Assembly: GCA_900552555.1 (NCBI GenBank)
Contig: URZW01000002.1
Span: forward strand, 13,760 to 77,759
Reading direction: 5' to 3'
Origin: an uncultured Clostridium sp.
GTDB lineage: Bacteria; Bacillota; Clostridia; TANB77; CAG-508
Length of the DNA stretch: 64,000 bases
The notes below the pieces were generated by a model. That model saw only the letters and a list, made by a program, of their open reading frames with translations, searched no databases and was not told the DNA's origin. The translations under genes and the position numbers were made by a program. The stretch's first letter is position 1. Every line of letters starts with the position of its first letter. Below, in pieces: positions 58,927-61,743 of the stretch.

Positions 58927-61743
58927 TTATTTAACAACAACATTATAAATTTTATTTTTAACATAAATCTCTTTAACAATAATCTTACCATCCAATTTAG
59001 AATCAATAGCATTATGAACTTTTCCTTTAACAGAAGATTCATCTTCATCAACAGAAATAGTTATAGTTGCCTTTAATTTTCCATTAAATTGAATAGGTAA
59101 AGTAATTTCATCATCAACAGTTTTTTCTGCATCATATTCTGGCCAAGAGTATGTAGAAACATCATCTTCAAAACCAGCAATTTTATTAAGTTCTTCAGTG
59201 ATATGTGGTGCAAATGGATTTAATAAAGTTAAGAATGTTTTAAATTCAGCTTTATTAATTTTACCAATTTTGTAGAATTCATTAACCATTGTCATAAATG
59301 TAGATACAGAAGTATTAAATTTCATATCTTCAATATCTTGAGAAACTTTCTTAATTGCTTTATGCATCATTTTTTCAGCTTCTGGTGAATATGAATCACC
59401 ATCAACCAACATATTTTGCATATTCCATACTCTGTCTAAAAATTTACCGCATCCACGGATACTTTCCATAGACCATGCAGCAACTTGGTCAAATGGCCCC
59501 ATGAACATTTCATAAACTCTGAAAGTATCTGCACCAAATTCATTTACTATATCATCTGGGTTAATAACGTTTCCTTTAGATTTAGACATTTTTTCACCAT
59601 TTGTTCCCAAAATCATTCCATGAGAAGTACGTTTTTGATATGGTTCTTTTGTAGGAACAACACCAATATCATATAAAAATTTATGCCAAAATCTTGAATA
59701 TAATAAGTGTAAAGTTGTATGTTCCATACCACCATTGTACCAGTCAACAGGTGACCAATATTTTAAAGCTTCTTTTGATGCAAGTTCTTTATCATTATGT
59801 GGATCCATATATCTTAAGAAATACCAAGAAGAACCAGCCCATTGAGGCATTGTATCTGTCTCTCTTTTTGCAGGTTTACCACAATGAGGACAAGTTGTAT
59901 TAATCCAGTCTGTTTGTTTTGCTAAAGGTGATTCACCATTTTCTCCAGGTGTAAATTCTTCAACTTCTGGTAATCTTAAAGGTAAGTCTTTTTCGTCAAG
60001 TGGAACCCAACCGCAATCTTCACAATAAACCATTGGAATAGGTTCGCCCCAATATCTTTGACGAGAAAATACCCAGTCACGCAATTTGTAATTAACCTTT
60101 TTAGTACCAATATGATTATCTTCTAAATATTTTATTACTTTATTAATAGCATCTTGTTTATTCAAACCATTTAAGAATTCAGAATTAATATGGATTCCGT
60201 CTCCAACCATAGCACCCAAATTTTGAGAATATTCAAAAGTTTTCTTATGTAATGCATCAGTAATTTCATTCAATTCATTTCTTGAAACCCATTCAACATC
60301 AAAGTTTTCATCGTCATCTAAATTTTTCTCAACTTTATTTGAACTATTTAATTTAAATAAAAATCCTGTTGAATCAATATTGAAATATTTATCTTTATTA
60401 TATGCATAATAGTGATGGTGAATCAAAGGCAATTCTTCTAACAAAGAGAAATCTGTATAACCAGTTTCTTCTGTTATTTCTCTAATGGCACAATCTAAAG
60501 CAGATTCATTTTCTTTTCTAGTTCCACCAATAAATAATCTACCACCATTTTTATGCCAATTTATAGTTAAAAACTTATCATTTTTTTCATCATACACAAT
60601 TGCAACAATAGATTTTTTTGAAAATTCATTTTCATGTGGTCTACCTGTTTCTTCTTCTAAAACTTGAACAATTGGTAAATTGAATTTTTTAGCAAATTCA
60701 TAATCACGAGTATCATGAGCAGGAACTGCCATTATTGCACCAGTACCATATGTAATTAAAACATAATCAGAAATCCAAATTGGAATTTCCTTATTTGTTA
60801 ATGGATTTATAGCAGTGATTCCTTTAATTTCAACACCTGTTTTTTCTTTATTCAATTCAGAACGCTCAAACGCTGATTTTAAACTTGCTTGTTTTTGATA
60901 TTCTTGAACTTCATCTAAGTTTTCAATTTTATCTTCTAACTCTTTTAAAATAGGATGTTCTGGTGATATAACCATATAAGTTGCCCCAAATAAAGTGTCA
61001 GGTCTTGTTGTGTAAACAGTTAAATCTTTATCCATATTAGCAATTTTGAAATTAACTTCTGCACCTTCTGATCTACCAATCCAATTTTTTTGTTGAACTT
61101 TGATTTTCTCTAAGAAATCAACATCGTCTAAATCATCTATTAATTTTTGAGCATAATCAGTAATTTTTAGCATCCATTCAGATTTTTCCTTTTGAACAAC
61201 AGGGCTTCCGCATCTTTCACAAACACCGTTAACAACTTCTTCATTTGCTAAACCAACTTTGCAACCAGTACAGAAATTTATAGGCATTGTTGTTTTATAT
61301 GCTAGACCATGTTTATATAATTGAATGAAAATCCATTGTGTCCATTTATAATATTCAGGGTCTGTTGTGTCAATTTTTCTAGACCAGTCAAAAGAAAATC
61401 CTAAAGATTTTAATTGCTCTGTAAAGTGAGCTATATTTTGAGCTGTTGTTATTTTAGGATGTACATTTGTTTTTATTGCATAGTTTTCAGCAGGTAAACC
61501 AAATGCATCAAATCCTATTGGAAATAAAACATTATATCCTTGTAGTCTTCTTTTTCTTGCAATAATATCTAATGCTGTGTAACTACGAGGATGTCCAACA
61601 TGTAGACCTTGTCCTGATGGATATGGAAATTCTATTAGTCCGTACCATTTTTTCATTGTATAATCATCTTTGGCATTGAATGTTCCTTCTTTGTCCCATT
61701 TTTCTTGCCATTTTTTTTCTATTTCTTTAAAATTGTAAGCCAT
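58927..61743 (-). CDS. leuS: leucine--tRNA ligase with an inserted Nudix hydrolase domain
   Basis: HIGH (HVGHP) and KMSKS motifs; editing domain ending [17 protein letters not shown]; canonical [22 protein letters not shown]. The insert [24 protein letters not shown] fits the Nudix box Gx5Ex7REUxEExGU. Confidence 0.9.

Follow-up and report, generated by a model that had tools for sequence, protein, structure and literature searches.

Why would a bacterial leucyl-tRNA synthetase (LeuRS) carry a Nudix hydrolase domain within its editing domain, is this second enzyme active, and what would it act upon? These questions are raised by the gene leuS, which occupies positions 58927–61743 (minus strand) of a 64,000-nucleotide stretch of DNA from an uncultured Clostridium sp. 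(contig URZW01000002.1, positions 13,760 to 77,759, assembly GCA_900552555.1); this whole stretch is referred to as the window. A first-pass annotation, made from the letters alone, had proposed a LeuRS with an inserted Nudix domain at 60246–60640 (about amino acids 369–500), and a Pfam match to NUDIX (PF00293) with 49.3 bits bears this out. We propose that a working LeuRS hosts a competent Nudix hydrolase for which compounds of the diadenosine polyphosphate (ApnA) or nucleoside tetraphosphate (Np4) type are the likeliest substrates, and we give this explanation as a whole a probability of roughly 55%. That the Nudix hydrolase is active and separable, and its host a working LeuRS, is judged from sequence considerably safer, while the substrate class taken by itself is a tentative suggestion.

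The host synthetase and the placement of the insert

The open reading frame (ORF) encodes a bacterial-type LeuRS of 938 amino acids. The model leuS_bact (TIGR00396) scores 992.1 bits against a cutoff of 548.4, in two stretches on either side of the insert, and Pfam recognizes the LeuRS editing domain (PF13603, amino acids 219–372) as well as class I catalytic and anticodon-binding domains besides NUDIX. Both catalytic motifs are present, HVGH at amino acids 48–51 (61591–61602) and KMSKS at 718–722 (59578–59592), as are the editing motifs TTRPDT (245–250), YGTG (332–335) and AHDTRD (342–347). We compared 73 full-length proteins, namely the window protein and 72 orthologs from the loci described below, which are down to 51% identical to it. 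Among these, H48, G50, H51, K718 and K721 as well as T245, T246, R247, D249, T250, D344 and D347 are invariant, and HxGH, KMSKS, TTRxDT, GTG and AHDxRD are all conserved, so that the motifs of the host are intact. Among the four largest ORFs of the window, the ones that were profiled, no second LeuRS was found. By its motifs, the host is in all probability a fully functional bacterial LeuRS. Since at least seven independent contigs of human-gut metagenomes encode the identical 938-amino-acid protein, and since its 90% identity cluster comprises 75 members, including one from a 1.74-Mb contig, the Nudix-bearing LeuRS is not an assembly artifact. The parts of the gene are as follows:

58927–61743, minus strand: leuS coding sequence, 938 amino acids plus stop, hosting the Nudix domain (TIGR00396, 992 bits; HVGH, KMSKS)
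60646–61098, minus strand: CP1 editing domain before the insertion, amino acids 216–366, with TTRPDT at 60994–61011 and AHDTRD at 60703–60720 (PF13603 and alignment to solved CP1 domains)
60214–60645, minus strand: inserted Nudix module, amino acids 367–510, with its own N-terminal 'G-x-PH' lead-in; without counterpart in the 802-amino-acid relatives
60250–60612, minus strand: core Nudix fold, amino acids 378–498 (PF00293)
60457–60525, minus strand: Nudix box, the metal-binding catalytic helix, amino acids 407–429; signature residues invariant in 73 of 73 orthologs
60388–60420, minus strand: putative substrate-specificity 'X-loop', amino acids 442–452, with Tyr 16, 17 and 19 residues past the box (X-loop concept from PMC5389931)
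60091–60213, minus strand: remainder of CP1 past the insertion, amino acids 511–551, rejoining the catalytic core at NYKLRDW (aligns with T. thermophilus LeuRS 380–425 and 4k47 145–184)
60136–60657, minus strand: cassette that differs from the 802-amino-acid allele of the sister lineage, amino acids ~362–536 (protein and DNA comparison)
58930–60090, minus strand: second catalytic half, anticodon-binding and C-terminal domains, amino acids 552–938 (Pfam, TIGR00396)
61780–61808, minus strand: promoter-like TTGAAA-17-TATAAT, 37 nucleotides before the leuS start (consensus match only)

The NUDIX match covers amino acids 378–498 (E = 6.5e-13; gathering score 21.1) and reaches 53.7 bits if the excised segment is searched alone. 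The Nudix box quoted in the first-pass annotation is indeed found at amino acids 407–429, where G-x5-E-x7-REUxEExGU is satisfied at every signature position. Compared with an almost identical 802-amino-acid LeuRS without the domain, the insert adds 136 amino acids, close to the earlier estimate of about 130. The distance from NLPI to KVNYKLRDW, about 190 amino acids, was likewise given correctly; the relative without the insert has about 54 amino acids there, compared with the roughly 75 that the first-pass annotation had given for canonical bacterial enzymes. The placement has to be revised as well: the domain had been put beyond the end of CP1, but it lies inside CP1, in the loop between residues ~368 and ~380 of T. 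thermophilus LeuRS (residues 138–145 of the S. pneumoniae CP1 structure 4k47), and in the alignment to solved LeuRS the last strand and helix of CP1 resume C-terminal of it. Canonical enzymes (E. coli 4AQ7, T. thermophilus 1H3N/2BYT, S. pneumoniae CP1 4K47) have the same domain order, HIGH and KMSKS motifs, editing site, anticodon-binding domain and C-terminal domain; in the window protein, a Nudix domain of about 140 amino acids replaces a CP1 loop of 6–11 residues (T. thermophilus 368–380). None of the solved LeuRS structures aligns across the insert, and each matches in two stretches flanking it.

An AlphaFold2 (AF2) model of the insert adopts the alpha/beta/alpha sandwich of the Nudix fold (predicted local distance difference test, pLDDT, 88; predicted template modelling score, pTM, 0.83), in agreement with the profile result, and a two-domain model of CP1 with the insert is fairly confident including the N-terminal linker (pLDDT 82–84, pTM 0.73). 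The insert is a member of the Nudix superfamily and a real domain predicted to fold as such. Its closest curated and solved relatives appear to be RppH, ApnA hydrolases and Dcp2. A Foldseek search with the insert model has E. coli RppH, also in its complex with diadenosine tetraphosphate (Ap4A; 7sp3), and the Aquifex Ap4A hydrolase among its top matches. A profile search of PDB sequences returned the Nudix domain of Dcp2 as best match (E = 8e-8 over ~120 residues), the nearest sequence relatives there being the RNA-acting Dcp2, g5R and AvrM14, with RppH next by fold. Dcp2 proteins are, in contrast to the bacterial insert, eukaryotic and possess an N-terminal regulatory domain and Box B. In NCBIfam, RNA pyrophosphohydrolase models are the best for both the insert and its free-standing relatives, all below cutoff; NudB, MutT and NudI are among the further weak matches. 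The MutT model TIGR00586 reaches 12.3 bits with the excised insert and 21.2 bits with a related 284-amino-acid free-standing protein, short of its cutoff of 97.9. Because the curated thresholds of RppH and MutT are both missed, we class the insert only as 'RppH/ApnA-hydrolase-like'.

Downstream of the box, the motif H-H-Y-Y-A-x-N-K (HHYYAxNK) of the putative X-loop is near-invariant in the 73 orthologs. The X-loop contacts the substrate's X moiety, and the diagnostic Tyr of ApnA hydrolases sits some 17 positions downstream of the box (Dunn 1999 as summarized in PMC5389931). In the window protein, Y445, Y446 and Y448 follow the box by 16, 17 and 19 residues, the first two being near-invariant, a spacing that is suggestive but not ApnA-specific. 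RppH/NudH and the ApnA hydrolases (Aquifex aq_158, T. thermophilus Ndx1, NUDT2) have the fold, the full box and an X-loop aromatic residue ~17 positions past it in common with the insert. In contrast, identity to them is only 14–21%, family scores are ~25–38 bits against 118, and the known enzymes are free-standing whereas the domain of the window is inserted.

Distribution, selection and behavior as a cassette

To survey the distribution, one genome per GTDB species was scanned by pattern and tblastn, which gave 235 matching stretches, of which 80 loci were fetched. Among the matches listed, all stem from uncultured gut metagenome-assembled genomes of 'Bacilli/Tenericutes' type (human, rabbit, chicken, ruminant, mouse). 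Seventy-two of the fetched loci encode complete LeuRS of 935–959 amino acids with the domain at the same position and one (L077) encodes a split form of 284 amino acids, while in the remaining seven a contig end or a frameshift cuts the gene short. The first homologs found were all 138–307 amino acids long, and an artifact of the genetic code (TGA recoding) or a split LeuRS was therefore suspected; both ideas were rejected. Short homologs on long contigs (L091, L092; P0021, P0022) come from frameshift-rich assemblies in which all neighboring genes are fragmented too, and the others are contig-end fragments or represent the genuine 284-amino-acid gene discussed below.

Within the Nudix box, G407, E413, R421, E422, E425, E426 and G428 are invariant in all 73 full-length orthologs. 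Had profile searches missed a Nudix fold in the insert, or had the box glutamates been substituted in most orthologs, the first-pass annotation would have fallen; the profile does recover NUDIX, and the glutamates are intact in every one of these proteins and in 13 of 13 free-standing derivatives. Mean pairwise identity is 0.70 for the Nudix part, 0.72 for CP1 and 0.66 for the catalytic core. The ratio of nonsynonymous to synonymous substitution rates (dN/dS, Nei-Gojobori) of the Nudix part is 0.03–0.10 in most of 14 close pairs, similar to CP1 and core. The Nudix domain is under purifying selection as strong as that on the synthetase. We further observed that the identity of the Nudix region levels off at 65–74% among the 73 orthologs, no matter whether the cores of the LeuRS compared share 40% or 90% identity. 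This plateau reflects a fixed set of invariant positions together with a rapidly saturating one; it could also result from frequent cassette exchange.

A natural allele without the domain was found if the window LeuRS minus its insert was used as query. Among the best 120 matches listed, 119 are clusters of 802-amino-acid gut-metagenome LeuRS that are free of a Pfam Nudix match and 94–96% identical. This allele resides at the same locus (Topo-HD-leuS-repeat gene-373-amino-acid gene). Compared with the window LeuRS, residues 1–362 are 98.9–99.2% and residues 537–938 are 97.3–98.5% identical, while residues ~362–536 are replaced: the Nudix domain is absent and the tail of CP1 is just 46% identical. 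The DNA of leuS flanking the cassette is ~93–95% identical to that of the sister lineage, compared with 70–84% for the neighboring proteins. Such a pattern is a mosaic produced by recombination. L066 and L042, the closest outgroups (82–84% identical in the flanks), bear the domain, and their tails are 69–77% identical to that of the window; loss in the 802-amino-acid lineage is thus favored by parsimony, while the direction is not proven. As an observation in its own right, the LeuRS portions encoded at 58930–60135 and 60658–61743 are 97–99% identical to those of the sister contigs L088–L090 while the neighbors are 70–84% identical, and leuS therefore looks as if it had either been exchanged recently between lineages or been unusually constrained.

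A second type of exchange involves distant lineages. The LeuRS of L043 and L019 are 55.7% identical in the core and 93.5% in the Nudix region, with a tract of high identity at residues ~241–520, which indicates, from sequence comparison, that the CP1-Nudix tract was exchanged horizontally between L043 and the L019/L018 lineage. Flanking the cassette, neither direct or inverted repeats nor other element-like features were found, no jump in composition was seen, and in the 938-amino-acid protein no nuclease, integrase or intein motif was recognized, synthetase domains and NUDIX being the only Pfam/NCBIfam matches above cutoff. A mobile element was considered and ruled out, given that the borders lack repeats and a composition jump and that no further domain was recognized.

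Derivatives of another kind are found in three closely related rabbit-gut genomes, where a gene for 276–284 amino acids lies 15 nucleotides upstream of an ordinary leuS for 806 amino acids. It joins a CP1 core of reduced length to the Nudix domain and the tail of CP1, and occupies the following positions:

L001, 6001–6855: free-standing CP1-Nudix gene
L003, 6001–6831: free-standing CP1-Nudix gene
L077, 5689–6543: free-standing CP1-Nudix gene

Gene order at the split locus matches that around the fused genes, GH31 being located upstream, and the Nudix-less LeuRS partner nests deep in the Nudix-bearing clade (nearest neighbor 77.6% identical). Because the partner nests there at the same GH31-linked locus, gene fission is the derived state, and the 284-amino-acid gene as ancestor of the fusion is ruled out. 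Nudix box and X-loop are retained in 13 of 13 fission-type proteins, while most of these no longer have the editing motifs (missing T-rich region, HN in place of HD); about 95 plus 35 amino acids of CP1 scaffold persist under selection. In this gene, a class I editing domain seems to have given rise naturally to a free-standing protein, and other free-standing CP1 paralogs are not known to have been described. The gene overlaps, by 14 nucleotides, a gene for a predicted membrane protein of 122 amino acids. In summary, the Nudix domain is a separable module that was set apart as a gene of its own, gave way to an ordinary loop and was exchanged by recombination. Since such a cassette can split, be lost and be exchanged, 'domesticated insertion', which the first-pass annotation had named as an alternative, comes closer to the observed evolution.

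Beyond the gut lineage, a HMMER scan of 1.84 billion cluster representatives yielded 308 Nudix relatives. Among the best 148 of these 308 representatives, 77 are LeuRS or fragments of LeuRS, including proteins from the candidate phyla radiation (CPR), whose hosts are named by the sources as Candidatus Moranbacteria and Candidatus Pacebacteria/Paceibacterota. The CPR versions are distant ones, some with two or three Nudix copies, and among the best 148 a second insertion site lies at CP1's N-terminal edge. In the CPR LeuRS P0161, Nudix is accompanied by a domain of the Ham1/RdgB type (non-canonical NTPase). Members of this Nudix family were further found in an isoleucyl-tRNA synthetase (IleRS; TIGR00392, 775 bits), which also has a histidine-phosphatase domain, and in a PNPase-like protein. 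The metagenomic proteins behind the multi-Nudix, second-site, Ham1, IleRS and PNPase-like cases are P0029, P0027, P0040, P0046, P0057, P0161, P0069 and P0157. Proteins with the LeuRS-Nudix architecture are annotated in public databases simply as leucyl-tRNA synthetase, in one case as RdgB/HAM1. Free-standing Nudix relatives comprise ~155–170 amino acids with at most 46% identity. They have the 'G-x-PH' lead-in and the X-loop motif in common with the insert, suggesting the capture of a small Nudix gene as a whole. The inserted domain would accordingly derive from a family of free-standing Nudix proteins of ~160 amino acids, and its presence in both gut Bacilli and CPR is either independent or ancient.

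Possible functions of the inserted domain

How might such an architecture work? In the explanation we prefer, a variable surface loop of CP1 hosts a complete Nudix pyrophosphohydrolase that is predicted to be catalytically competent. Using Mg2+, this domain would hydrolyze the pyrophosphate bond of a nucleotide-type substrate independently of aminoacylation and editing. The likeliest substrates would be dinucleoside polyphosphates containing adenine (Ap4A/Ap3A/Np4A), which arise as side products of aminoacyl-adenylate chemistry, or else the related 5'-polyphosphate/Np4-capped RNA ends that RppH handles as well. Riding on LeuRS may provide constitutive, stoichiometric expression and a place beside both the source of such compounds and the bound tRNA. 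Ap4A is among the products of aminoacyl-tRNA synthetases, and RppH breaks it down as well as Np4 caps (PMC10148737). The link to Ap4A or alarmones proposed in the first-pass annotation would be compatible with the weak similarity of RppH/ApnA type. Because of the invariant box, the low dN/dS and the cassette behavior, it is very likely that the insert is an active, separable pyrophosphohydrolase which is not needed for aminoacylation. Its assignment to the ApnA/Np4 class is more tentative by far, even though it heads our ranking, followed by a house-cleaning role, an action on tRNA ends and finally a non-catalytic role.

Several points weigh against the preferred explanation. The Nudix fold does not fix the substrate, and the fold neighbors of the insert are mixed, including RppH, ApnA/Ap6A hydrolases, decapping effectors, DIPP, ADP-ribose and nucleotide-sugar hydrolases. 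None of the NCBIfam subfamily assignments reaches its curated threshold; with the RppH models (NF001936 and related), the insert scores 21–25 bits and the free-standing relatives at most 38.5, compared with a cutoff of 118. About a tenth of the embedded CPR copies lack a strict Nudix box. Ap4A is diffusible, which leaves no obvious reason why the domain should be built covalently into LeuRS of all enzymes, and the chief Ap4A producers are of LysRS type. The sister lineage lives without the domain, so any coupling to LeuRS function is dispensable. Finally, the fission product keeps ~130 amino acids of CP1 scaffold that a simple small-molecule hydrolase does not obviously need.

A first rival is a general 'house-cleaning' pyrophosphatase for NTPs or nucleotide derivatives (MutT/NudI/NudB-like), for which a highly expressed essential gene of small genomes would serve as an expression vehicle only. 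We consider this rather unlikely. It fits a module that is dispensable and separable, and it fits the weak NudB, MutT and NudI matches. It is also consistent with the company the domain keeps, Ham1/RdgB in the CPR LeuRS P0161 and a histidine phosphatase in IleRS, and with the reduced genomes of its hosts, which are gut Bacilli of ~1.6–1.7 Mb (largest contigs 1.58 and 1.74 Mb) and CPR. However, a neutral vehicle does not predict the narrow host range, overwhelmingly LeuRS and always CP1, nor that the fission gene stays adjacent to leuS and keeps its CP1 pieces; moreover, the best profile matches are of RppH type and not of MutT type.

In a second rival, the domain would act on the tRNA bound by its host, stripping a pyrophosphate-type lesion or a cap from the tRNA end (a 3'-CCA pyrophosphate, or a 5' NAD or Np4 cap). 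This would amount to built-in tRNA repair or decapping, CP1 being the site where the 3'-CCA end is delivered. Both insertion sites lie within or at the edge of CP1; the family occurs almost only inside RNA-handling enzymes (77 of the best 148 are LeuRS, besides IleRS and the PNPase-like protein); and the nearest PDB sequence relatives act on RNA. In addition, the CP1 scaffold of ~95 plus 35 amino acids is kept after fission although the editing motifs are mostly lost, and the CP1-Nudix model is fairly confident through the N-terminal linker. Lesions of the required kind reportedly exist, as toxSAS toxins (RelA/SpoT homologs) are reported to pyrophosphorylate tRNA CCA ends (Kurata et al. 2021). 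Cassette swapping, presence or absence at strain level, and the recurrence in IleRS and the PNPase-like protein would fit an accessory function driven by such conflicts with toxins or phages. However, the CP1 remnant may be retained for folding alone, and the sister lineage manages without the domain. We regard action on tRNA ends as still less probable than house-cleaning, and a shade less probable again its most specific form, in which the CP1-embedded Nudix domain would use the grip of the editing domain on the acceptor end to repair or decap tRNA(Leu), so that LeuRS would proofread the nucleotide chemistry of the tRNA end too.

A non-catalytic role as ligand sensor or as structural or interaction module (compare NrtR/NadQ-type proteins), which modulates LeuRS editing or binds a partner, is improbable, since catalytic residues that are invariant in 73 of 73 proteins of the gut-Bacilli clade, and also kept post-fission, are the signature of retained catalysis. 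A selfish or recent functionless insertion (mobile element, intein-like or assembly chimera), to which the presence and absence between very close leuS alleles and the recombinant tract of L043 might point, is in effect refuted already by the data on selection and distribution, namely dN/dS of 0.03–0.1, an identical protein on many independent contigs and 235 matches at the same position in a collection with one genome per species, and the flanking or inverted repeats and the nuclease, integrase or intein motifs of such elements were not recognized.

Surroundings of leuS and meaning of the architecture

The surroundings of the gene were inspected as well. Upstream, the gap at 61744–61888 contains a short untranslated region with the promoter-like sequence listed above (61808–61780). 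No Rfam family was found at gathering threshold in the entire 64-kb window; hence, a T-box leader before leuS is lacking, and a T-box or other RNA leader as candidate was ruled out. Divergent from leuS, two tandem HD-domain paralogs follow on the plus strand (61889–62665 and 62703–63473), whereas the sister lineage without the cassette has a single HD gene, which is closer to the first paralog (70% identity) than to the second (42%). We considered these as YqeK-type Ap4A hydrolases and rejected this, as there is no NCBIfam YqeK match but only generic HDIG and Cas3-HD. Just downstream of leuS, a 185-amino-acid ORF (58236–58793, plus strand), without match to a Pfam family, consists of tandem repeats of 42 nucleotides (14 amino acids, LLDLKRGQEERDKI-like; 5.8 copies at 58258–58502). 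As its orthologs on related contigs have 185, 171, 175 and 119 amino acids, this repeat protein is length-variable. In the sister lineage, a pair of RVT_1 and bAvd genes, typical of diversity-generating retroelements, is located between Pyr_redox and UDG (L088 14138–15785, L090 11290–12936). This pair is absent from the sister contig L089 and appears to be absent in the window, with ~85 nucleotides between the matching segments.

How does the architecture compare with known ones? Synthetases with an accreted catalytic domain are a known kind: IleRS with GNAT (NF040702) and the free-standing paralogs of editing domains in class II systems (AlaX, YbaK/ProX) follow the same principle of a catalytic module carried by or split from a synthetase. 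Here, in contrast, the module is predicted to catalyze Nudix pyrophosphohydrolysis, is located inside CP1, and mostly lacks editing motifs in its free-standing form. Nudix domains are likewise known as fusion partners or in tandem (NadM-Nudix, 2qjo; multi-Nudix proteins), while here a tRNA synthetase carries them, two or three at a time in CPR. In the open-access full-text literature searched, we found no description of a LeuRS-Nudix or other synthetase-Nudix architecture, and the words tRNA and synthetase are absent from the text, 178,000 characters long, of a review of the Nudix clan (PMC5389931). The first-pass annotation called the architecture unusual, and to this extent the term holds.

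Bacterial aminoacyl-tRNA synthetases are usually seen as architecturally conservative, and synthetases with extra catalytic domains are found mostly in eukaryotes. The class I synthetase of the window, an essential enzyme, contains a second, very probably active enzyme, as predicted from its conserved residues, inside its proofreading domain. The architecture extends over some two hundred or more uncultured gut species as well as over CPR, whose proteins contain as many as three copies and further hydrolase domains, and the insert might serve as a candidate marker for the gut lineage. Because a natural fusion, a fission product with a piece of CP1 and a near-identical allele without the domain all exist, both the role of the Nudix domain in the cell and its need for LeuRS are directly testable. 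If the substrate is ApnA or Np4A, the architecture would physically link the class of enzymes that produces alarmones or cap precursors with an enzyme that degrades them; if it is the end of a tRNA, it would represent a new kind of tRNA quality control.

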